Shown here: piece by piece, positions 2,830-51,812 of the stretch | Numbering within the stretch: position 1 is the first letter of the stretch | How the letters are laid out: each line of letters starts with the position of its first letter | Position numbers and translations under genes: made by a program | Notes under the pieces: generated by a model | The model's input: the letters and a program-made list of their open reading frames with translations, nothing else | Database searches by the model: none | Told to the model about the DNA's origin: nothing | DNA from: a virus | Lineage: Duplodnaviria > Caudoviricetes | Virus record (IMG/VR): IMGVR_UViG_3300029171_000011 | Span: 1-51,812 of that record | Direction: 5' to 3' (one strand) | Length of the DNA stretch: 51,812 nucleotides

Positions 2830-3035
2830 AAAAGCCCGCGCTTGTGGCACGAGCTTCTCAATATAACCCCAAAAAACCAAATGAAAACCAAAATGAAAAA
2901 TCAAACCTAAAACCCTATCGGCTACAAATATAACCGCATTCCACCAAATGTGCAAGACATTTTTTTCTATCTGTCCCTCCCCCTACCGTTGCCTTCACGG
3001 GCGCGGTAGGTTTTTTGAAAATAAAAATAACAACC

Positions 3036-4505
3036 ATGAAAGTTAAATTCCTTTCTTTACTTTTTACCTGCCTTGCCCTTGTCGGCTTTGCGCAGGAATC
3101 GGAGCCGGATTTCATCCTCCCTCCCTTTACCGCCGAATACGACGCCACCCGCACCCTTGCCCAAACCGTGGATTACTGGCACCCCCTGATGGAATCAGAC
3201 CAGGCGTGGAACAAAAGCCGGGGGGCGGGGACGGTTGTCTTCATCCTTGACACCGGGCAAAACCCACACCCTGACCTTAGCCAGAATGGGCAACAGCACA
3301 ACTTCAACACCACCCCCGAACCGATGGCGGATGGCAACGGACACGGCTCTTATTGCGCCGGGGTTATCGGTGCGCAGAATAATACGTTCGGGGCGCTGGG
3401 TATTGCCCCTGATGCTATTATCGTTTCCGGCAAAGTCATGCGCAACAACGGAACTGGAAGCAGTACGGAGATTGCGGCGGGGATCAGGCGGGCGGCGGAT
3501 GTTTACACCGCCAATTTCAGCAGCTACGTCGGCATAATTTCTATGTCGTTTGGCGGGGGTTCCCCTATGCCCGACGTGGAGGAGGCGCTATTGTATGCCG
3601 CATCAAAGGGCATGGTCTTAGTGGCAAGCGCCGGTAATTCCGGCTTTGGCGGAACGGGTAATACAATGGGCTACCCCGCCCGGTACGAACCTGTTATTTC
3701 CGTTGCCGCCATTGGTCAGAACCTTACCCCCGCCCCGTTTTCAAGCGGCGGGGACGGGCTGGACTGTACCGCCTTCGGGGTTTCGATCTATTCCACAAAC
3801 AATAACGGTGGTTATGCCCGCGTTTCCGGCACCTCGTTTTCCGGGCCAATGGTCGCGGGGGTTTGCGCGTTAATCGGATCGTACCACAAAACCGCACTAC
3901 TAACGGGCGACAAAACCAAGATAAACGAACGGGTGCAGGAACACCTGCGCAAGTACGCCACCGACCTGACGGGTACGGGCTACGGCGCGGGGTGGGATAA
4001 CCGAACGGGGTACGGCCTGCCAAAAGCCACCGTACTGGATAAAGCACTTCCCGGCGGCGGCGGTACAAATCCGCCCCCACCAACGCGGGCGGCAAGAAAC
4101 ATAAACGTAACGGTACCGGATTCCTATGTGATGCAGTGGAGGCCTGAAAATAGCGAGGTGTTTCAAACGCTGAATTTGAAGTTTGAGGTAAGGCACCTAA
4201 GCAAAAAGAACGCTGTTCCCGCGCATCAGGACGCGGTGGGGTGGGTTGCGAACTTCTTCTTTCAACGGGGATTTATCCTCATGGCGAACGATGATGAATG
4301 GGAAGCGCTGTTTTGGGCGCGACACTTTACGGAAGTAATCAGCAAGGTACAGGGCGTCCCGCTTGTTTGCATGCGCCTGACTGCGACAACGGAAGGCGGG
4401 CAAGTGTTTACCCTATCCGACAACGAAAGGCGACAGGGACAGGCGACGAAGGTCAAGGCTGGGGTGAAACGGGGGGTTATGACGGTGAGCTTTTCGGGGG
4501 AGTAG
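3036..4505 (+). CDS. Secreted subtilisin-family (S8) serine protease with unknown C-terminal domain
   Basis: Catalytic motifs ILDTG (Asp), GHGSYCAG (His), SAGN (oxyanion Asn), SGTSFSGP (Ser); signal peptide MKVKFLSLLFTCLALVGFA|Q; GGGGTNPPPPT linker. Confidence 0.95.
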   Translation: MKVKFLSLLFTCLALVGFAQESEPDFILPPFTAEYDATRTLAQTVDYWHPLMESDQAWNKSRGAGTVVFILDTGQNPHPDLSQNGQQHNFNTTPEPMADGNGHGSYCAGVIGAQNNTFGALGIAPDAIIVSGKVMRNNGTGSSTEIAAGIRRAADVYTANFSSYVGIISMSFGGGSPMPDVEEALLYAASKGMVLVASAGNSGFGGTGNTMGYPARYEPVISVAAIGQNLTPAPFSSGGDGLDCTAFGVSIYSTNNNGGYARVSGTSFSGPMVAGVCALIGSYHKTALLTGDKTKINERVQEHLRKYATDLTGTGYGAGWDNRTGYGLPKATVLDKALPGGGGTNPPPPTRAARNINVTVPDSYVMQWRPENSEVFQTLNLKFEVRHLSKKNAVPAHQDAVGWVANFFFQRGFILMANDDEWEALFWARHFTEVISKVQGVPLVCMRLTATTEGGQVFTLSDNERRQGQATKVKAGVKRGVMTVSFSGE

Positions 4506-6372: not shown

Positions 6373-6403
6373 TGTCGTAAATTGTTGATTGTTAATGATA
6401 CTA

Positions 6404-6470
6404 CAAATATACCACCACCCGCCCACGAAACCCAAAAACGATCTACCAAAGTCGGCAGTTTATAGACGAA
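6404..6470 (-). promoter_or_regulatory. Boxed promoter P2
   Basis: TATATTTG; boxes TTCGTCTA/TTGGTAGA with 21-bp period, proximal box 38 nt upstream of the TA. Confidence 0.8.
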
Positions 6471-6487
6471 TGCAACCACCCGCCCGA

Positions 6488-6700
6488 CTAATCTTCAATT
6501 AACTTGTACCCCGCACACCGCCCTGGCTTACCGAGCCGGGTGGTGAAGCGTATTACGTAGCTTTCTATCTTGTACCCCTGCTTTTTCAGGTCAAAGATAC
6601 GGGCGGCAAGACGGTGAACGCCATACTTTTCGCGGGCAACCATATCGGTAATCGAGCCGCGTTTTTTCAGGTGGGCAAGGATTTGGTCGCGCTGGTTCAT
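6488..6700 (-). CDS. Small winged helix-turn-helix protein (HTH_39-like)
   Basis: QRDQILAHLKKRGSITDMVAREKYGVHRLAARIFDLKKQGYKI pattern; ATGA coupling to upstream membrane gene. Confidence 0.85.
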   Translation of the reverse strand: MNQRDQILAHLKKRGSITDMVAREKYGVHRLAARIFDLKKQGYKIESYVIRFTTRLGKPGRCAGYKLIED

Positions 6701-8256
6701 GCGTTTTCGTGTTCATACGGGCCTAATACATCAAATTCGTATTCATTCTCCACCCCCCCGGCTACCTTTCCGCCACGGGTTATGATCCAGCAGTTACTAC
6801 CCTCTTTTATTTCTGCCCTGTACCCGTTTGCCCGAAGCCACGCGGCCTGCTGTTGTACCTTTGCGTCAGTTGCCCCCCGGTAAGTCGAAGCCGCCCGGAA
6901 ACGTTTCACAAAAGCCTTAACGGCTTCGCGGTCGTCCGGGCTGGGGTAAGCGGCATCCCCTACCCCGGCCCCGGTGTCTGTCTGTTTTTCTGTTCTGTGC
7001 GCGTTCTGTCCGACTTCTGTCTTAATATCTATGTTCTGTGTTTTTTCTGTCCAATTTCTGTCTAAATTCTGTTCTGCCCCCTCCCGGCTCCGTTCTTTCT
7101 GTCTTTCCGCGTCCCGGTTCCAGTGTTCTCGCTCCCTGATCTGTTCGGGGGATAGGGTACGGCCTAATGCGTCTGTCTTGGTTGCTGTGCGGGGGAGAGT
7201 AGCCACAATTGTACCGTCCCCCTGCACCTGGAAATCTACACGATCCTTTACGCCAAGCGCACGGGCAAGGCCGGAAAGCATACCCTCGTTTGCCTTGCTT
7301 CCAAATGCGCCGAAAACCTTACCCGCGCTGACTTTCGGGGTTAAATTGTCGCCCGTTGTGACCTCGTATATCTGCACCATAAAGCAGGCCACCACGAACA
7401 TTATGCCCGCTGCCCACATGATAAAAACCATCATTCCAACCCACCGGCCCTTTTGCGTTTCGGCACCTGTTACCTCCTTTTCAAGTAGCGCAATTGCTTT
7501 CCCGTTTGCCGCATCCACCTTGCCCCCGCTTGTCTTAACGAAGGCCGCCAGGGCGTTTTCTGCTTTGGACAGATTCTTTTCTGCCTTAGACAGATCGCGT
7601 CTGTGTTTCTGTGCAGCGCGGGTTTCCGCTTTTTGGACTTCTGACTTTGCCCATGCGTTCCCGCCCGATGCAAGCCGTCTCAATTCACCTGAAACGGAAG
7701 CGGAGACAGAGGTTTTCTGTGCGTTTTTAACTTCCGCCAGCGCGGTTTCTGCCCGCTCCACGGCGCGGTCGTATGTCTTTCTGTTTGACTCGAACGTGTT
7801 GTTGTTGCCGGCCACAATGTTACCGAAAACGCCGGTGTCTGCATCGGCTGCGAGGGCGTCTCCAAGTTCGGGGGAAACAACCAGGTTTGTAAGCAGCGTT
7901 CCGGCGAACATTACCACCGCCACGCCCACAGCGAGCAGGTCAAAGAAACGCATAGCCCACTTGCCCTGATCCAGTTTTACAGCCGGGGTACGAACGCCAA
8001 ACCAGCCCAAAACAACGGACACTGCATAGGGAAGGAATACCAGGATTTTGCGGTCAAGCAGGAAGTAAAGCCCGAACCCGGCGGCAATGGCGGCGATCCG
8101 GTGCAGGGTAGGAGAAAGGATTTCGGCAAGCTGATTCCAGTTCATTGTCAACTGCCAGCCGACTACGGCGGTGCCGAGGGCTAAGACTACGTGCGCGGCC
8201 ATCATTACGGCGCGGGCATTGGCCGCTATGTCGCGGCGCGGGTTGTTGTGTGTCAT
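6697..8256 (-). CDS. Multi-pass membrane protein with coiled coil, low-complexity linker and small basic C-terminal domain
   Basis: 519 aa; several N-terminal TM helices, Ala/Lys/Glu coiled coil, a further TM helix; own TATATTTG promoter at 8295-8288. Confidence 0.85.
   Translation of the reverse strand: MTHNNPRRDIAANARAVMMAAHVVLALGTAVVGWQLTMNWNQLAEILSPTLHRIAAIAAGFGLYFLLDRKILVFLPYAVSVVLGWFGVRTPAVKLDQGKWAMRFFDLLAVGVAVVMFAGTLLTNLVVSPELGDALAADADTGVFGNIVAGNNNTFESNRKTYDRAVERAETALAEVKNAQKTSVSASVSGELRRLASGGNAWAKSEVQKAETRAAQKHRRDLSKAEKNLSKAENALAAFVKTSGGKVDAANGKAIALLEKEVTGAETQKGRWVGMMVFIMWAAGIMFVVACFMVQIYEVTTGDNLTPKVSAGKVFGAFGSKANEGMLSGLARALGVKDRVDFQVQGDGTIVATLPRTATKTDALGRTLSPEQIREREHWNRDAERQKERSREGAEQNLDRNWTEKTQNIDIKTEVGQNAHRTEKQTDTGAGVGDAAYPSPDDREAVKAFVKRFRAASTYRGATDAKVQQQAAWLRANGYRAEIKEGSNCWIITRGGKVAGGVENEYEFDVLGPYEHENA
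6977..7176. repeat. TCTGT/ACAGA pentamer array with 11-bp phasing
   Basis: 13 exact TCTGT copies, including runs at 6994/7005/7016 and 7035/7046/7057/7068. Confidence 0.85.
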
Positions 8257-8261
8257 GTTTT

Positions 8262-8363
8262 TCTATCTGTCATAGTTAAAGAATTTACAAATATAAGTCA
8301 GAACCTTGACAGATACAACAGAAAGGTAATTCTGTGCGCACATAGAAAGAACAGAATTTCTGA
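8262..8363. repeat. TCTGT/ACAGA cluster over the promoter of the membrane-protein gene
   Basis: Exact copies at 8266, 8309, 8318, 8331, 8351 plus four one-mismatch copies. Confidence 0.7.
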
Positions 8364-8384: not shown

Positions 8385-8450
8385 TCGGTCGGTAAAACCC
8401 ACTCGTTCGTCGAACACTTTGCCCTTAAAATATTTTGCGCTTTATCTTTG
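8385..8450 (+). promoter_or_regulatory. Boxed promoter P3
   Basis: Boxes TCGGTCGG (8385)/TTCGTCGA (8406), TTTG 8418, TATCTTTG 8443. Confidence 0.8.
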
Positions 8451-12647: not shown

Positions 12648-12748
12648 AACGATCTTATTCGACGTGGAAAGCGGGCAAGATCGTTGATTATAATTTGTTA
12701 GTCGCAAGACGCCCGAAAACCCGGCCTTTCCACCATGCGCCGGGTTTT
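12648..12748 (+). promoter_or_regulatory. Two hairpins with complementary loops in the replication-gene leader
   Basis: Stem AACGATCTT/AAGATCGTT with loop GTGGAAAG; stem AAAACCCGG/CCGGGTTTT with loop CTTTCCAC. Confidence 0.6.
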
Positions 12749-12776
12749 TCATTTTGTAAACATTATAATCAACGAT

Positions 12777-13790
12777 ATGATAAACATTCATCACAACCTG
12801 ATCAGGGAAGACCTAAAAGTAATAGGTTCCGACGGCCTCACCGTCCTGCTGGTTATCGCCTCGTTTATTGGCAAAGATCGCAGCGCCTTCCCTAAATTTC
12901 AGACAGTCAAAACCATGTGCGGGCTATCCAAAGAACGCACTTACAAAGCCATTGCCACCTTGCAGAACACCGGATATTTAGAACGGTCACAAGAGAACAT
13001 AGCCGGGGAATGGGGTAAGGTGACGTACCGAATTGCCACCGACAAATTGGGTATCTGGATCAATGCAAATGAGTTTGAACTGGAAGAAGAAGATAACCGC
13101 TTGCCGGAAAACCGGAATACGGATATGCGGCACCCGGAAACCCGGCAAGCATTAAGTATTGGTCAAGAAGGAAGTATTGGTCAAGATAAAGAGAATGTGC
13201 AAAACGATGTTTTGCCCGCTCCCTTTGAAAACTTCTGGGAACAATTCGGTTATAAAAAGAACAGGAAGAAAGCCCTATCCGCTTTTAACCGCCTGACCAA
13301 AGCCAATCAAAAACTTTGCGTCGAAATGATCCCGGCGTACCTCCAATTTATCGCCGCCACCGGCACCCCGCAAATGCACCCCACCACCTGGATAAACGGG
13401 GAGCGGTGGAACGATGATTTCACTATCCCCGCCGGGGGCAAGAAAGTAGTTAACACCGACGCGGCACTAAAGGACTGCGATCTACCTGAACAATTACAGC
13501 CGCTTTACGGCGCGTACATTTCCGGCATGATCGAAAAGTTTCCGGCGCTGTGGAAAAGCGAATGCCGGGTGCTGTCACAAAGCGAATGGGCATTATTTCA
13601 GGACGCCGGGCATCTGACCGCCGCGCAGCGCATCGCCATGACTCCAGAGAACGCGGCAAAGGCGCGGGGCGATGTTCACCGGATGCTGAATGAAAAGCCT
13701 TTTGAAAGGCAGAACTTTTCCACCGTGTACGATGCAATTGTGGCGGCTTATATTCATGTTTGTAACGGACAAAACGCAACAACGATATGA
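12777..13790 (+). CDS. Phage replication initiator (N-terminal wHTH)
   Basis: AFPKFQTVKTMCGLSKERTYKAIATLQNTGYL HTH; FENFWEQFGYKKNRKKA...HPTTWINGERWND motif of phage O-like proteins. Confidence 0.85.
   Translation: MINIHHNLIREDLKVIGSDGLTVLLVIASFIGKDRSAFPKFQTVKTMCGLSKERTYKAIATLQNTGYLERSQENIAGEWGKVTYRIATDKLGIWINANEFELEEEDNRLPENRNTDMRHPETRQALSIGQEGSIGQDKENVQNDVLPAPFENFWEQFGYKKNRKKALSAFNRLTKANQKLCVEMIPAYLQFIAATGTPQMHPTTWINGERWNDDFTIPAGGKKVVNTDAALKDCDLPEQLQPLYGAYISGMIEKFPALWKSECRVLSQSEWALFQDAGHLTAAQRIAMTPENAAKARGDVHRMLNEKPFERQNFSTVYDAIVAAYIHVCNGQNATTI
13104..13186. repeat. Candidate iterons/replication origin inside the initiator gene
   Basis: CCGGAAA(A/C)CCGG twice and AAGTATTGGTCAAGA twice (13154, 13172) in the linker-coding region. 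Confidence 0.5.
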
Positions 13791-13903
13791 AACCAATAAG
13801 CGAAGTTTTCCACCGTGTACGATGCAATTGTGGCGGCTTATATTCATGTTTGTAACGGACAAAACGCAACAACGATATGAAACCAATAAGCGAAGTTTTC
13901 CAC
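13716..13903. repeat. Perfect 90-bp tandem duplication bounded by TTTTCCAC microhomology
   Basis: 13716-13805 = 13806-13895; TTTTCCAC again at 13896. Confidence 0.95.
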
Positions 13904-24282: not shown

Positions 24283-24349
24283 TTCGTCTATAAACTGCCT
24301 CGATTCGTCGAGTTTTGTTTGAGTTCGGGGCGGGGTTGGGGTATATTTG
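24283..24349 (+). promoter_or_regulatory. Boxed promoter P6
   Basis: TTCGTCTA (24283)/TTCGTCGA (24304), TATATTTG 24342; TTCGTCTATAAACTGCC shared with P2. Confidence 0.8.
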
Positions 24350-24384
24350 TAGGGTAATCAGTAAATAACTAAAAACTTAAAGAA

Positions 24385-30843: not shown

Positions 30844-31711
30844 TCTCCACCCCGCGCTCCTTTGCCCACAGTTCCGCAAAGTCCGCGCTGATCCAGTTTA
30901 AATTGTGGGTGCAGTTGTACCCGCCTAAAACTACCTTCACGTCGCCGGGTCGCTTGCCCTGCCAGTCTAAGTTATTCCACGAATCAATCACAGCACGGGT
31001 ATAGATTTGATTCAAACGATCCATGCAAAACTCCCGGCTATCGTCAACCCGTACCCCGGCGTAAATCGCGTGGGTGTCCGTGCCTAATTCCGTTGCGTAC
31101 TCAAAAGAAAGCGTCCGATCAAATTCCATGTACAGGTCATGGGAGAAGCGGGCGAAGTGGCGCTTGGAAAGACCCCCGTTTGCATTCGTAAAGAAGGCGG
31201 CAAAGTCACGCTGAAACTTAGCGAGCGGCACCCGCCCCGCTACGGCTTTCCGCATCTGATCAACGATCTGCCGGGCAGCGGGGTTGGAGCGCAGGATGTC
31301 GGCAATGTACCCATCCGGGGTTTGCTTGCCGTCCTGAAAGCCGTACAGGTCAAACACCTTTGCGGCAATATCTTTTTCCACTTTGGCCGGGTCGGTAAAG
31401 ATTGCCTGGTATTTCGTGCCAAGCCCGAACAGGCGCAGGAAGCGGTTGTAAATCTTGGACAGGATGCTTTTGTTTACCTTCGCCGTTTCCGCTTTCAGGA
31501 TCAGGGACGCGGTTGCAATCTTGGCGATATTGCGCACGGTAAAGACGATCTTCCCGTTCTTGTCCGTGTCAAGGCCCGCAATGAGCCGGGCGGCAATAAG
31601 GAACAGCGCCCCGTCCAGCGCATCGAAAAGGAGTTCAAGGGCATCGCCTGCCGTCTCGCGTTCCTGTTCGCGGGCGTCGGTTAAAAGGTCGTATTTTTGT
31701 ATTTCGTCCAT
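30827..31711 (-). CDS. Minor head/head morphogenesis protein (MuF/SPP1 gp7-like)
   Basis: YAGVRVDDSREFC...GGYNCTHNL C-terminal motif; near portal on the same strand. Confidence 0.75.
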   Translation of the reverse strand: MDEIQKYDLLTDAREQERETAGDALELLFDALDGALFLIAARLIAGLDTDKNGKIVFTVRNIAKIATASLILKAETAKVNKSILSKIYNRFLRLFGLGTKYQAIFTDPAKVEKDIAAKVFDLYGFQDGKQTPDGYIADILRSNPAARQIVDQMRKAVAGRVPLAKFQRDFAAFFTNANGGLSKRHFARFSHDLYMEFDRTLSFEYATELGTDTHAIYAGVRVDDSREFCMDRLNQIYTRAVIDSWNNLDWQGKRPGDVKVVLGGYNCTHNLNWISADFAELWAKERGVEINGYR

Positions 31712-31769
31712 AAATTTGTGCGGTTGGTCGGTAAAGTTAGGGCAACTGTATGCAATTTACGTAACTTTA
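31703..31769 (+). promoter_or_regulatory. Boxed promoter P9, overlapping the start of the MuF-like gene
   Basis: TTCGTCCA (31703)/TTGGTCGG (31724), TAACTTTA 31762. Confidence 0.7.
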
Positions 31770-31779
31770 AAAGAAAAAC

Positions 31780-32469
31780 ATGAACGTACTGATCGCCTGC
31801 GAAGAAAGCCAAGCCGTGTGCAAAGCGTTTCGGGCTAAAGGACACGTAGCTTATTCCTGCGACACGCAGGAGTGCAGCGGCGGGCGTCCTGAATGGCATA
31901 TTGTTGCCGATGTGTTGACGGTGATTAATGGCGGGGCGTTCGTAACGCAGTCGGGTGACGTGGTAACTATTGAGAAGTGGGATATGGTGATTGCATTCCC
32001 GCCCTGCACCCATTTATCCGGATCAGGCGCTCCAAGCTGGAATGCAAAACAAGCAGACGGCAGGCAGCAGGCGGCGTTTGAATTTGTTGTGAATATCTGG
32101 AATGCAGATTGCCCACTAATTGCAATCGAGAACCCGACCGGGTGGCTTAACACTAATTGGCGCAAGCCCGACCAAATATTTTACCCGTTCCATTTTGGTG
32201 ATCCCTACATGAAAAGAACTTGCCTTTGGCTAAAGGGGCTGCCAAAGTTGGCCCATACCAATGTAGTTGCGCCGGAATATCACTATACATCTAATTCAAC
32301 GCAAGGCGGAAAACTCAAAGACGGGACACGCAGGAAAAGCAAGTTGCCGATCCGGAAGGCGTGGGACAGTTCAACAGAAAGATCGAAAACATTCCCCGGA
32401 ATTGCGCAAGCCTTTGCAGACCAATGGGGCAGCGGTGTGCTTGCACCCGTACAATTAGATTTGTTCTGA
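31780..32469 (+). CDS. Short phage DNA cytosine-5 methyltransferase-like protein
   Basis: FPPCT catalytic motif IV, ENP motif VI, KRTCLW, RSKTFPGIAQAFADQW. Confidence 0.8.
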   Translation: MNVLIACEESQAVCKAFRAKGHVAYSCDTQECSGGRPEWHIVADVLTVINGGAFVTQSGDVVTIEKWDMVIAFPPCTHLSGSGAPSWNAKQADGRQQAAFEFVVNIWNADCPLIAIENPTGWLNTNWRKPDQIFYPFHFGDPYMKRTCLWLKGLPKLAHTNVVAPEYHYTSNSTQGGKLKDGTRRKSKLPIRKAWDSSTERSKTFPGIAQAFADQWGSGVLAPVQLDLF

Positions 32470-40659: not shown

Positions 40660-40725
40660 TTTTCTTCCCGCACGACTTCGCGGCTTTTTTTACCCTGCTT
40701 GCGTTACGGCAGGGGTTAAGAAATA

Positions 40726-41004
40726 TTATTTATTCGGGCAATACATCAGCTTGCCGCATACGGCTATTACTGATACGCCCCTGTTGGATATAAACTCGCT
40801 AACCTCGTCGTAGTTAGCGTAAGTTGTGTTTAAGGACACCTCTTCAAAATAGGTGTCCTTTTTCCACCTGGTTATTTTCAGCCCGAACTGGGCTGCTGCC
40901 CTCTTGAAGGCTTCCATCCTCCCGTCAGCGCTTCGATCCATCCCATCCTCTTTCAGGATGGAATTTATTAGATCGCTTTGCTCTTTCTCTGAAAGATATT
41001 TCAT
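40726..41004 (-). CDS. Hypothetical protein
   Basis: 92 aa, first gene after P10. Confidence 0.65.
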   Translation of the reverse strand: MKYLSEKEQSDLINSILKEDGMDRSADGRMEAFKRAAAQFGLKITRWKKDTYFEEVSLNTTYANYDEVSEFISNRGVSVIAVCGKLMYCPNK

Positions 41005-41046
41005 TTTTATTTTTTTTGAGTACCAGGTTCCTTCCTTAGTACCCTA

Positions 41047-41113
41047 CAAATATACCTCCACCCCGCCCCGAACCCCAAAAACGATCTACGAAACACGGCG
41101 ATTACTCGACGAA
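41047..41113 (-). promoter_or_regulatory. Boxed promoter P10
   Basis: TTCGTCGA/TTCGTAGA with 21-bp period, TATATTTG; closely similar to P2 and P6. Confidence 0.8.
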
Positions 41114-41174
41114 CGAAAGAGTTTAACAGACGAAATAAATATTTAGCCCCCGGTTCTCGCAAGGGGCCGGGGGT

Positions 41175-47489: not shown

Positions 47490-48315
47490 TAACGCCTTTT
47501 TGGGGACGCTTGCCGCCCCGGCCTATATCGGCTCCCTGCCCGTGTCTACTGATCTGGGCGGGGGGCTGGCATTGTCGGAGGTGTGCAACATTTTATTACT
47601 TCCACTTGGCGGCGCGTTCCCCACTACCTGGTCTGACCTTGCCGCGTTACAGGCCGCAATTGATAACACCGATACCACGGGCGGATATGGGAAGTGGCTA
47701 CCGGGCAAAGGTTCGATTCCCGCTTCAAACGTGCTTACCGCTCCGATGGGAAGGCAGCACCTGAAAAAGGTGGGGGCGGAATACCAATTAACCTTTGAGG
47801 TGCCGATCTACTGCGCGGCGTATTACGAAGCCTGCCGGACTATCCAAAAAAATCCAACTTATTACAATTTATGGTTTTTTACCGTCGCGGGGTTCGGGTT
47901 CGGCGGAAGCAGCGGCATACGCCCGTACTACCTGCACTGCGACCTGCCGAAAGGTGGCAGCGATGGCGCGGTAGAAGTGGGGATTATTACCGTCCGCTGG
48001 CGCGCCGATGGCGACCCCGCGCGGGTATCAATGCCGGGGCTGAACGGCGGGACGGATGAAACAAGCGAACTAAGCATTACCATGTTTGCACAACAATTCA
48101 TATCAGTTTCTTCATCCACCCTAACGTGGACGCGGAATAACGGCGAGATACCGCCTTCGCCCTCGGTGCGCTTCCATGTGTTCCAAAACGGGCAAAAGCT
48201 GCTATCCGGCGCTTATGTTATCACAGAAGGAACGGGTGTCGGTGAAAGTGAGGTGGTTATTGATTCAACATACTATACAGATGGAAATACTTACGAAATT
48301 GTCGCCTATTTTTAG
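47479..48315 (+). CDS. Tail-tube paralog with C-terminal extension
   Basis: Shares LSEV, IDNT, GxIP and FGGxxGI motifs with 46884-47489; GTG start assumed. Confidence 0.6.
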   Translation: MEFNNAFLGTLAAPAYIGSLPVSTDLGGGLALSEVCNILLLPLGGAFPTTWSDLAALQAAIDNTDTTGGYGKWLPGKGSIPASNVLTAPMGRQHLKKVGAEYQLTFEVPIYCAAYYEACRTIQKNPTYYNLWFFTVAGFGFGGSSGIRPYYLHCDLPKGGSDGAVEVGIITVRWRADGDPARVSMPGLNGGTDETSELSITMFAQQFISVSSSTLTWTRNNGEIPPSPSVRFHVFQNGQKLLSGAYVITEGTGVGESEVVIDSTYYTDGNTYEIVAYF

Positions 48316-51133
48316 GCTGTTTTTCCTGCTTGCCCTCCCCGTTTTCGGCTATGCGCAGCAGTTCCCGGTCAATAATCAGAAAATTGTGCAGGGGGTAGGC
48401 ACCACGGCGCAGGGCGTTAGCTCTTACAGTTCCTCCCCTCCCACCGTCAACCCTGCCGCAACGACCTGGCGGCACGTTACATCATTGCACATGGACACGG
48501 TTAGGCAGGTGCAGTACATTTATAAGCGCCCGCGCTGGTATCCGATTAGCGTTGTGCGGGATACGGTAGCACCGCCCGCCACAAAGACAAGCGGCGCGGC
48601 CACAATTGACTATACGGAAAGCATCTGGCAAAATACGGTGGATTCCCTTACCTATTATTACGAAGAAGAAAATGCGTGTTGGCAGCCAATCGGCACTTAT
48701 TTAAGCAGCACTACCCCCGTAGATGTAGCCGCAACGGGTTCAACCGGCGCGATCTGTTACGGGTACGGGCTTTGGTACGACCCGGACGTGGATTCGATTT
48801 ACGCGCAGCAGGGCGCAACGTGGACGGCCATTGGCGCGGGTAGTGCGGGCGCGGTGGATAGCATTGTAGTGCTGCAAGATTCTATCATTGTCGGGTACTC
48901 GGAAGGGGTAGAGGTAACACGGGACACCATCGGCTACCCTGCCGGGGCTACCGTTACCGCATCCAACGGCCTTACCAAAACCGTGAATGATATTAAGTTA
49001 GGCGGCACACTGACAGGAAACACATTTGTTTCAGGTGCAAGTACATACGACCTTGATTTAACTGCTATGGACAGCCTTTCTATATCGTTTTCAAAGCGCT
49101 TGCTTATAACGCAAAACAGTCAGCGGTTCCTACACCAAACCGGCGGCGGTGGAGGTGGAGGTGTTTTCGAGAATCTATTCTTAGGCTATCAGGCAGGGTT
49201 TTCTGCACAAGGCACTGGGACGGGATACGCCAATACTATTATTGGACACAGGGCCGGATACGCTCTTACACTTATCTCGGCAGGCGGATTAACAACCGCA
49301 ACCTCGAACGTATTTCTGGGTTACACGGCAGGGCTTGGATGCACAAATTGTACAGGCAATACGTTTTTGGGTACCGCATCCGGCAGCGCAGCGGTTTCAA
49401 CTTACGCGAACACTTACGTCGGTTGGCACGCCGGTATTAACGCTACCGGTTCTTATAATACATTTTTAGGCCGAGATGCCGGGTCTACTGCGACTTCCTC
49501 CGAAACAGTCGCCGTAGGGGTTTTAGCTGGCAGCAAATCAAACGGGATACGCAATACCTTTTTGGGGGCGTACGCGGGGCAAGATATTGCGTCTGCCTCG
49601 CAGGAGAATGTTTTTATTGGATGGAAGGCGGGGGGAAATTCAGGCAATGTGTCAGCGGGTTATAATATTTTTATCGGAGCGGAAGCTGGATTTAACAATA
49701 CAACCGGAAACACAAACACGTTTGTCGGACGCAACGCTGGAAAGGCAAATACAACCGGCAACGTGAACACCTACATAGGAAATAATGCCGCCACGAACAT
49801 GACGACAGGTAGCAACAATATCTTAATTCAGGCTGGAGCAGCGGCGTTTCCATCCGCCACACAGTCTAATAGCATACTCATAGGCCCGAATATTTACGCG
49901 ACCGGTACTTATACCGGATCCGCGATGCGGATGGGAATTGGAAACGGGACATTTCGAGACCCACGGGCGACGCTACACGTTAGGGCGTACAACAAAAGCA
50001 TTAACGACACTACTTTTTGTGTTAGCAATAGCACGGCAGAGGCGTCCGTATATCATAACCTTTTTATCACATCGGATGGCAGAACCGTAGTACAAAACGA
50101 AACCGCTACAAACGTAGCACTCGAAGTGCCAAGCGGCGATACTGATTTTTATAACGACAGTCGAATCAGAGGGACTTTGGAAGTCAACACTCTTTCCGGC
50201 ACTGCAACACAGCTCGGTGCGTTCACGTCAGGCAACGTGGCCACAACCGCAACCCTCGGAGCCGGGCTGTCTTTCAGTTCCGGAACGCTGAACGGGGCGT
50301 TCCTACCCCTCACCCTGACAGGCGCAACCGAAGTAAACACCGCCGGGCAAACGCTCCGGATTCGGGACGCGGGGAGCTATCCGGATGTGTTTATGAACAA
50401 CACGTATTGGCTTGCCGCCTCATCTGCGCTAACATACATAAGCGTTGGAAGCGATCTCGATACAATAAGCATTGTAACGGACAGGGGAATAATCCTGAAC
50501 ACAAACGGGAACATTGACGCAATCGGGGATACATTAAAAATAGACGCTAACCTCGGAGATGGGCATGTTCGCATGACTGGCAACCTCGGAGTTGGCGACA
50601 TCACTAACGGAGACGGAATAACACTTGCGGCATACGCGGCGGGCAACATCCTTACAAGTGTAACAATAGACGGCACCGGAAATTCCGGGCTGTTATTCGA
50701 CGACGGGGCATTAACACTATCCAACAACCTGTCAGAAGTTGCAGACACCGTAACCCGAACCCTCGGAACCGGCCAGCAAATCTATGCTAACGGGTACGCA
50801 ACGTATTCTGGCAGTGGATTCACGTATAGCAGTGGGCGCATTACAAACGGCTCCGGCGCGTCTCGAATTTGCAAAATCCGGTACTATTTCACAGCGGAAA
50901 CGGCGGGGGTACTTACAGATGCGCTCACGGTTCGGGTAATGATTTGGGACGGCGCAACCTACATGGAACACCGGGCGGGACGGCTGACTATGACGTTAAA
51001 TGACGACTGGGAATTAACCGGATCAAAGGAGACGATTATCACGCTTCCTGACGGAGACGGGGTGAATATCGCATTCGATTCTACCGATGGCCTTGACGTT
51101 TCCAATTTTGGGTATGTGATTGAAAAAATCTAA
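48281..51133 (+). CDS. Tail fibre/adhesin-like protein (allele B) with N-terminal signal peptide
   Basis: MEILTKLSPIFRLFFLLALPVFGYA|QQ; many N(T/V)F(L/I)GxxAG beta-roll repeats of YadA-head/Bacteroidota fibre type; variable C-terminus. Confidence 0.8.
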   Translation: MEILTKLSPIFRLFFLLALPVFGYAQQFPVNNQKIVQGVGTTAQGVSSYSSSPPTVNPAATTWRHVTSLHMDTVRQVQYIYKRPRWYPISVVRDTVAPPATKTSGAATIDYTESIWQNTVDSLTYYYEEENACWQPIGTYLSSTTPVDVAATGSTGAICYGYGLWYDPDVDSIYAQQGATWTAIGAGSAGAVDSIVVLQDSIIVGYSEGVEVTRDTIGYPAGATVTASNGLTKTVNDIKLGGTLTGNTFVSGASTYDLDLTAMDSLSISFSKRLLITQNSQRFLHQTGGGGGGGVFENLFLGYQAGFSAQGTGTGYANTIIGHRAGYALTLISAGGLTTATSNVFLGYTAGLGCTNCTGNTFLGTASGSAAVSTYANTYVGWHAGINATGSYNTFLGRDAGSTATSSETVAVGVLAGSKSNGIRNTFLGAYAGQDIASASQENVFIGWKAGGNSGNVSAGYNIFIGAEAGFNNTTGNTNTFVGRNAGKANTTGNVNTYIGNNAATNMTTGSNNILIQAGAAAFPSATQSNSILIGPNIYATGTYTGSAMRMGIGNGTFRDPRATLHVRAYNKSINDTTFCVSNSTAEASVYHNLFITSDGRTVVQNETATNVALEVPSGDTDFYNDSRIRGTLEVNTLSGTATQLGAFTSGNVATTATLGAGLSFSSGTLNGAFLPLTLTGATEVNTAGQTLRIRDAGSYPDVFMNNTYWLAASSALTYISVGSDLDTISIVTDRGIILNTNGNIDAIGDTLKIDANLGDGHVRMTGNLGVGDITNGDGITLAAYAAGNILTSVTIDGTGNSGLLFDDGALTLSNNLSEVADTVTRTLGTGQQIYANGYATYSGSGFTYSSGRITNGSGASRICKIRYYFTAETAGVLTDALTVRVMIWDGATYMEHRAGRLTMTLNDDWELTGSKETIITLPDGDGVNIAFDSTDGLDVSNFGYVIEKI

Positions 51134-51138
51134 CAGGC

Positions 51139-51636
51139 ATGAAAAAGATACTTTTCCTATTCCTGCTTATCCCCGTGATGGCACAGGCGCAAAAGCCAGT
51201 ACAACTTCCGGTAAATTATTTTGACGGCGCGGCGATTATAAGCACAGGCGACACAATTCCGTACACATGGGCGCGGGGCATCGCTACACCTCCGGGAAGA
51301 CTGGAAGTTCGGGGCTACCCGCAAATATCGTACCCGTCACTGCGTGTACCCGACTGCGAAGCATGGGAAACGTTCAGCGCTTGGGAGGTAAAGAACTCGA
51401 ACATAATCATGTGTAATCACGCGTGGGCATACGCAGAATGGAACGAGGTCAACACGCTCGATTTGTTCACAACACTCGAAATGCCGCCGCCTTGCGGACG
51501 CACACGCCACGAAAACGAAGCCCGGATTTGTCGCACTTGCTTGCGGCATGAAACGCGGGTAAGGATGCACGGCATGAAAGAAGTAGAACGAAAATCAGAA
51601 TTTCAAACACTGCTTGAAAAAATAAACGACAGATGA
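51139..51636 (+). CDS. Secreted protein present only in allele B
   Basis: MKKILFLFLLIPVMAQA|QK signal; CNH...CRTC motif. Confidence 0.7.
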   Translation: MKKILFLFLLIPVMAQAQKPVQLPVNYFDGAAIISTGDTIPYTWARGIATPPGRLEVRGYPQISYPSLRVPDCEAWETFSAWEVKNSNIIMCNHAWAYAEWNEVNTLDLFTTLEMPPPCGRTRHENEARICRTCLRHETRVRMHGMKEVERKSEFQTLLEKINDR

Positions 51637-51795
51637 AAAGTATAATCTTAGCGGCTTTGATGCTGCTTTCTATTTCGGTTATTGCGCAAGAGCGAAGCCT
51701 CGACACCGACAGCCTCGGAGCGCTTACAAACGTGGCGGGCGTGTTCTTCCAAACCCGATTCCTTGTGTACAGTAACGGGGAATCAGAAACCTACA
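51633..51795 (+). CDS. 5' part of the allele-B copy of the 1213 gene with a different signal peptide
   Basis: MKSIILAALMLLSISVIA|QERSLDTD..., mature part identical to the 1213-1863 protein. Confidence 0.8.
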
Positions 51796-51812
51796 GATCG
51801 TGACTGGGAAAC
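51796..51812 (-). other. SISPA/random-amplification primer remnant (technical)
   Basis: GATCGTGACTGGGAAAC is the reverse complement of GTTTCCCAGTCACGATC. Confidence 0.92.

Follow-up and report, generated by a model that had tools for sequence, protein, structure and literature searches.

Clusters of the word ACAGA in a phage membrane-protein gene and its promoter: a candidate DNA-to-membrane tether

Why should a phage gene that encodes a membrane protein hold within its own coding sequence, and again around its promoter, dense clusters of a single five-letter word? The locus lies in IMG/VR record IMGVR_UViG_3300029171_000011, whose 51,812 bases form the window (the whole stretch of DNA that was analyzed), and terminase, portal-like, holin, initiator, and primase-helicase genes are present in it. 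An earlier note on this DNA had proposed an autoregulated, centromere-like site whose binding protein tethers phage DNA to the membrane. The features concerned are as follows.

6488..6700, minus strand: 70-aa HTH_39 winged-helix (wHTH) gene, which overlaps the membrane-protein gene at the latter's stop codon
6697..8256, minus strand: gene for the 519-aa membrane protein, which is predicted to comprise four transmembrane (TM) helices, a coil, a tail in the cytoplasm, a disordered linker, and a small domain at the C terminus
6775..6929, minus strand: C-terminal domain (aa 443-494), helix-helix-beta-hairpin with a basic core, putative reader of the word
6977..7176, minus strand: main ACAGA array, 13 copies, coding for the linker; the core at 6977-7072 holds five 11-bp gaps
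7569..7784, unstranded: second cluster, 7 copies in both orientations, within the coiled-coil coding region
8262..8363, unstranded: putative promoter/operator cluster, 5 exact ACAGA/TCTGT copies and 2 TCAGA-type variants
8288..8295, minus strand: -7 box of the Bacteroidota type, TATATTTG, of the membrane-protein gene, invariant in four of four aligned loci
8443..8450, plus strand: divergent -7 box, TATCTTTG, putatively serving the rightward early genes and conserved in the alignment
13104..13145, plus strand: CCGGA-type repeats, within the linker region of the gene for the replication initiator (12735-13790)

Word clusters in the gene and its promoter

Direct counting placed all 13 copies of TCTGT between 6977 and 7176 exactly where the earlier note had put them, with successive gaps of 4, 8, 5, 11, 11, 19, 11, 11, 11, 30, 42, and 32, and no other 5-mer is clustered as densely within 200 bp anywhere in the window, the density of ACAGA being far above the genome background. 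The claim that codons cannot explain the array held up, since 20,000 codon-resampled versions of the same protein contained on average 2.5-2.7 copies of TCTGT and at most 8-10, against the 13 observed, and these are spread over all three reading frames (5, 2, and 6 copies). The array is a real DNA-level feature. The claim of 11-bp phasing needs qualification: five equal gaps among 12 have a chance probability of about 0.004-0.009 (any repeated gap being counted), and the spacing is strong in the window but weaker and not strictly conserved in relatives, four of which show a distance of 11 eight times against 3.7 expected (P = 0.03) and multiples of 11 at P = 0.007, the arrays in both comparisons being nonindependent. 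The word was also said to recur at 7569-7784 and to cluster in both orientations over the promoter, and both clusters were recovered; the former holds 7 copies against 1.9 expected (P = 0.0005), and the latter comprises five exact copies in 130 bp (8266, 8309, 8318, 8331, and 8351, in both orientations) together with the two TCAGA-type variants and includes an inverted pair (8261-8277/8302-8318). Of the 25 word sites, 20 are within the coding sequence, at distances of 0.5-1.3 kb from the promoter. Inference of the word from the linker amino acids was noisy, ACAGA ranking first in the window and third in the relative L001 and falling outside the top four in L123 and L124, and no conclusion here rests on it.

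The promoter box TATATTTG matches the Bacteroidota -7 consensus as it appears in the available text of PMC6847099, and two word copies upstream are, like the box itself, invariant in all four aligned loci. A further stretch, at 8257-8270, lies just upstream of the start codon and holds one word copy; it is almost invariant despite a reading frame relative to the gene that varies among relatives, so that it is conserved as DNA. The placement of word sites on either side of the conserved -7 box would fit autoregulation of the gene.

Whether homologs carry arrays, a check proposed in the earlier note, could be answered from close relatives. Nine homologous proteins were found at 44-78% identity, plus three from a further search, and the DNA of L001, L002 (partial), L123, and L124 was analyzed; a linker array is present in all three full-length close relatives and in the partial L002, which has 11 linker copies. 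The three full-length relatives (43-53% identical) hold 9-11 linker copies and 5-8 coil copies, both significant (P = 0.003 for the coil clusters), as well as 5-7 copies upstream, and their TM-coding and end-domain-coding parts were free of word clusters; across all four full-length close genes, the ranges are 9-13 in the linker, 5-8 in the coil, and 5-7 in the upstream 130 bp. Across their entire records, the window, G001:C5, and G002 each have their densest 5-mer cluster in the membrane-gene array, and in G405 the array shares first place. The phage contig that carries L124 is 48 kb long and was binned in a Saprospiraceae genome, and L123 lies on a 4-kb contig in a Coxiellaceae bin, where we infer that it was misbinned. 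No relatives were found in annotated phages or plasmids or by four scans of viral contigs. In G405, the family gene is frameshifted by 1 nucleotide inside its own array (L156, 6067-6149) and ends at 383 aa, through slippage, phase variation, or sequencing error.

The membrane protein and the candidate reader of the word

The architecture put forward in the earlier note, with TM helices, a coiled coil, a linker, and a small basic C-terminal domain, is borne out by prediction except in one respect: only the core of the end domain is basic (residues 443-494, with 11 K/R and 4 D/E), residues 430-519 as a whole being neutral (12 K/R and 13 D/E). Hydropathy indicated four to five hydrophobic segments, at about aa 14-36, 57-90, 99-131, and 270-302, in a part of the protein where the AF2 model is of low confidence; basic loops occur at the N terminus and at 69-70 and 89-103, and the positive-inside rule suggests that the chain crosses the membrane four times, leaving the coil outside the cytoplasm and the tail within it. 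The extracytoplasmic coiled coil is predicted at about aa 128-270, between TM3 and TM4. In the full-length AF2 model (mean pLDDT, 56), the coil is confident, the linker (389-435) is disordered, and a small end domain follows; this domain, when modeled alone with 19 sequences, forms a helix-helix-beta-hairpin (pLDDT, 76; pTM, 0.63) in which R454 and G478 are nearly invariant.

A comparison of the end domain with solved structures gave no Foldseek match at an E value of ≤0.001 (best VIA Z, 4.2) and no HTH or OmpR-type fold match, and a PDB sequence search with it gave no match; the absence of a PDB match implies neither a new fold nor a role unrelated to DNA. The 519-aa protein matched no Pfam or PHROG family, initiator families included; its Atlas matches were to unnamed clusters only (0.91, Bacteroidota; 0.89; and 0.88), and an Atlas search with the end domain gave nothing usable. 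DUF4407 (PF14362) was weakly matched by 3 of 47 family members (best E value, 4.7e-5) and not by the 519-aa query, and a literature search for this domain found nothing on mechanism.

The neighboring gene offers another possible reader. It was confirmed, as claimed, that the 519-aa and 70-aa genes are coupled, overlapping by ATGA, and that the neighbor is a wHTH gene, of the HTH_39 family (PF14090; E value, 1e-16; 60.8 bits against a curated cutoff of 21.3). The HTH_39 protein might thus read ACAGA, with the membrane protein merely hosting the sites or holding the wHTH protein as an adaptor, and its recognized DNA-binding fold and its coupling to the membrane gene in five of five close loci speak for this arrangement. 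We nevertheless consider it improbable. HTH_39 is missing from three of the five phage records that carry the family, these being the records of three further phage loci, and one of them, a 46%-complete fragment, contains L157 and its ACAGA copies. Of the seven loci found with a wHTH alignment, six, five of them near identical, lack both the membrane gene and an ACAGA cluster, and wHTH relatives at 46-49% identity were found without arrays. The wHTH protein is at most an accessory regulator.

A further check set out in the earlier note was whether the word covaries with the C-terminal domain among homologs. A profile search yielded 68 representatives that share a membrane and coil module and differ in their linkers, with end domains of the helix-hairpin, HTH, or zinc finger type or with none, and word and domain covary in two natural swaps. 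In the first, L155 and L157 are 60% alike in the membrane module and 23% alike in the last 70 aa; L155 carries GGCAC (11 copies against 3.1 expected) and L157 carries ACAGA (7 against 1.3), both at P = 0.0007. The word of L157 is that of the window on the other strand, its end domain is 16% like that of the window, and its cluster has a P value of 0.11 with the word left free. In the second, L142 falls in a clade of helical-hairpin-type modules with 98/100 support and yet ends in a zinc finger that is 49% like that of L151, and it shares the TAACG of L151 (7 copies; P = 0.003) and not the word of its kin. The swaps are few (two), and their words, except for ACAGA in L157, were chosen after looking; likewise, 4 of 11 zinc finger types show enrichment of TAACG and 1 of 5 hairpin types that of CACGA, with words picked post hoc. 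These two swaps, in which the words track the C-terminal domains, are the best evidence for the end domain as the reader. Arrays without the wHTH gene, wHTH relatives without arrays, and a word that follows the domain together make the C-terminal domain the most likely reader, and we consider that it probably does read the word.

A candidate membrane tether and its competitors

The setting of the gene bears on what such a reader might do. CheckV rates the window as 75% complete and linear; the partly overlapping ends suggest, against this rating, a nearly whole circle. The overlap (1-1372 and 50252-51812) consists of two short blocks with differing gene versions in between (ORFs 136-1206 and 48176-51133, neither with a family match), which may represent a tail gene that varies within a mixed population, and the final 17 bases resemble a library primer. 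Contig comparison bore out the window sequence in one sequencing run, which may be its source, and gave only short pieces elsewhere; no RNA data set containing it was found. Terminal repeats occur in one of the five phage records that carry the family (G405). Six-frame searches, whose positive controls were detected in 10-14 of 14 genomes, found a tyrosine integrase, resolvase, ParA, or ParB in none of these five records, which are partly incomplete, and no integrase was found among the 41 ORFs of G001:C5 or the 44 ORFs of G405. The host is probably a member of the Saprospiraceae.

Several other features of these records were recorded. A subtilisin-family protease gene adjoins the holin gene in the window (3015-4505) and likewise in L001 and L124, and in G405 it adjoins the endolysin gene instead. 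Intergenic stretches at 6388-6488, 24283-24374, 40666-40728, and 41040-41118 match DNA that lies 3' of the wHTH gene of L001 and of L002, and they have the appearance of one promoter element, with Bacteroidota -7 boxes, present in several copies. A 90-bp tandem duplication at 13712-13891, its copies 99% identical, runs from the last part of the initiator gene into the first part of a methylase gene; it is either genuine or an assembly artifact. In G406:C1, a dense repeat of GCACC and CCATC (12-15 copies in 200 bp) occurs at about 31700-31900, near the record end.

We suggest, on the strength of sequence patterns and predicted structure, that the gene may specify a one-gene, autoregulated DNA-to-membrane tether that maintains the unintegrated phage genome, a reading to which we assign a probability of roughly 0.5. 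The C-terminal domain would bind the ACAGA copies in the gene that encodes it and in that gene's promoter; numerous molecules of the protein would load onto the linker and coil arrays and oligomerize through the membrane and coil part; occupation of the promoter sites would let the protein repress its own gene and thereby fix how many tethers there are; and the genome would be held at the inner membrane, for lineage maintenance or for the placement of replication. Since integrase, ParA, and ParB were not found, the tether would position or segregate the circular genome without a motor. A more far-reaching and tentative proposal is that of a motor-free partition system, used by nonintegrating phages of the Bacteroidota, whose gene also serves, as one stretch of DNA, as its centromere and operator; the protein, threaded into the membrane during its synthesis, would grab the array of its own gene, so that each genome tethers in cis. 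If this were true, swapping the end domain together with the written word would give the system a new address and would bring further compatibility groups into being.

The wider family sets limits on this proposal. From the matching Saprospiraceae-family genomes, 30 loci were fetched, 29 of them new. With the word left free, a significant cluster (P < 0.03) occurs in 6 of the 21 distant homologs that are long-tailed and in 1 of the 8 that are short; the idea that homologs without the end domain lack arrays was set aside, as this is no clear contrast. A mobile-element-type neighbor lies within about 1.5 kb of 16 of the 21 long-tailed homologs (integrase in 8 cases, primase in 2, ParA in 2, and Rep/SSB, ERF, HTH_17, and RHH in 1 each) and of none of the 8 short ones, and the end domain thus goes with mobile DNA. 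Strong arrays are chiefly a property of the phage branch, and many members reside on integrating elements; with 8 of the 21 long-tailed homologs beside an integrase and 2 beside ParA, motor-free segregation is not the role of the whole family. L137, L138, L140, L143, L144, L148, L149, and L152 form a clade of chromosomal proteins of about 390-400 aa that lack the end domain and are encoded among housekeeping genes, possibly a domesticated or ancestral membrane module.

Among the competing explanations, the protein could be a transmembrane transcription regulator of the ToxR/CadC kind, whose coil senses an envelope or superinfection signal and whose C-terminal domain represses the divergent promoters, with the internal arrays serving as auxiliary operators or as a titration sink. 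In favor of this, a divergent promoter that faces early recombination and replication genes has an invariant -7 box with word sites on both sides, and no other repressor was recognized among the 76 ORFs scanned per library. We regard this account as rather unlikely, however, given that four-fifths of the sites lie deep in the coding region, that upstream word copies are few or absent in L132, L142, L147, and L151, and that fold searches with the end domain yielded neither an HTH nor an OmpR-type match.

It is also unlikely, in our estimation, that the protein is a SpdB2-like conduit, an oligomeric channel or docking site that passes marked DNA across the septa of a filamentous host, or that it acts in entry or exclusion. 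Its four predicted TM helices and coil recall SpdB2, which forms pores and is found on some actinophages according to the available text of PMC4447253, and members of the family turned up in 43 of the 401 Saprospiraceae-family genomes (G001 included) against 2 marginal matches besides G001 in a phylum-wide sample of 400, some Saprospiraceae being filamentous, as the accessible part of PMC9304909 records. The profile is biased toward the Saprospiraceae, though, so that this enrichment may reflect search sensitivity, and the same portion of PMC9304909 describes the abundant wastewater genera of the family as single rods. Moreover, DUF2637 was matched by none of the 47 family members at an E value of ≤0.001 (and not by the 519-aa query at ≤1), and no translocase was recognized in the phage (76 ORFs scanned per library).

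Two further explanations carry very little weight. That the array is a replication origin, with iterons for the phage initiator, is very improbable, even though the pattern usually marks just that. When viral DNA was scanned for four ACAGA copies spaced 11 bp apart, 119 loci were returned, 80 of them with flanks; a same-strand ORF of ≥150 aa covers the array in 40 of the 80 and is lacking in the other 40, and 33 of the 40 covering ORFs match initiator or DnaD-type families, so that four such copies are the usual signature of a protein-bound array in the reader's own gene. ACAGA at this spacing marks initiator linkers in many unrelated phages (L004-L122). The initiator of the window, however, has linker repeats of its own, the CCGGA-type repeats, which are likely to be the true origin iterons, and no ACAGA, and G001:C5 combines a different initiator and different repeats with the same ACAGA array in the membrane gene. 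A by-product of protein low complexity or local duplication, to which the predicted disorder of the linker and a 41-bp internal duplication within it might point, is hardly credible for a word that uses all three frames, exceeds synonymous nulls, and recurs in both orientations in noncoding DNA and in the structured coil.

The tether, if real, would matter in several ways. Many phages and mobile elements have neither an integrase nor ParAB-type motors, and a single self-addressed membrane tether would be a minimal answer to the question of their persistence. It is an old idea that membrane attachment by itself can segregate a replicon, and the tether would provide a direct test of it. The natural swaps of domain and word would serve as ready specificity controls and as a compact readout code for an uncharacterized DNA-binding domain.

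Comparison with known systems

In initiators of the lambda O type, the iterons lie in the linker of the initiator's own gene. The window shares with them a phased short word in a disordered linker beside the putative reading domain; it differs in that the array gene encodes a membrane protein and that a separate initiator has repeats of its own. A type I partition system (ParA, ParB, and parS) has a ParA ATPase and a ParB, and neither was found in the five phage records, which are partly incomplete. The p16.7 protein of phi29 is a single-pass protein and is not sequence specific, and it is unlike the window protein in lacking an array and in belonging to a lytic, protein-primed phage. It is nonetheless a phage membrane protein that organizes viral DNA at the membrane (PMC11476376, available text).

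RicO/ricS of Staphylococcus aureus, as described in the accessible portion of a preprint (bioRxiv 10.64898/2026.03.06.710092), is a site-specific DNA-to-membrane anchor without an NTPase; it is chromosomal, with an N-terminal DNA-binding domain, a coil, a C-terminal amphipathic helix, and nine dispersed 18-bp sites. Relative to that description, the window protein has the reverse domain order and an integral anchor, and its sites are packed into the gene itself. SpdB2 of pSVH1 binds DNA nonspecifically, works with TraB, and forms pores, so far as the available text of PMC4447253 states. On that basis, it resembles the window family in a coiled coil, in carriage on mobile elements that include some phages, and perhaps in four TM helices, the window protein having four to five hydrophobic segments; the window family is unlike it in giving no DUF2637 match, in the absence of a recognized translocase from the phage, and in the predicted placement of the coil between TM3 and TM4. 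SpdA2 of the Streptomyces plasmid pIJ101 binds a site, sps, inside its own gene and has a mild effect on segregational stability; SpdA proteins are 117-163 aa long, and the site is a 12-bp palindrome in one to three copies (PMC4170104, available text). By that account, the two systems are alike in a site within the protein's own gene and in the lack of a motor, binding in the window being predicted, and unlike in that the window has a 519-aa multipass protein, about 25 pentamers (direct repeats in the array), and a word that varies between relatives.

No published description of this design was found in the literature searched, which left most subscription papers and supplements outside. Since it lacks a defining feature of each, the window system is a member of none of SpdA2/sps, RicO/ricS, and SpdB2. 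By analogy with what the available texts report, it may work like a blend of the three, with its site as in SpdA2/sps, its anchor as in RicO/ricS, and its four-pass protein as in SpdB2.
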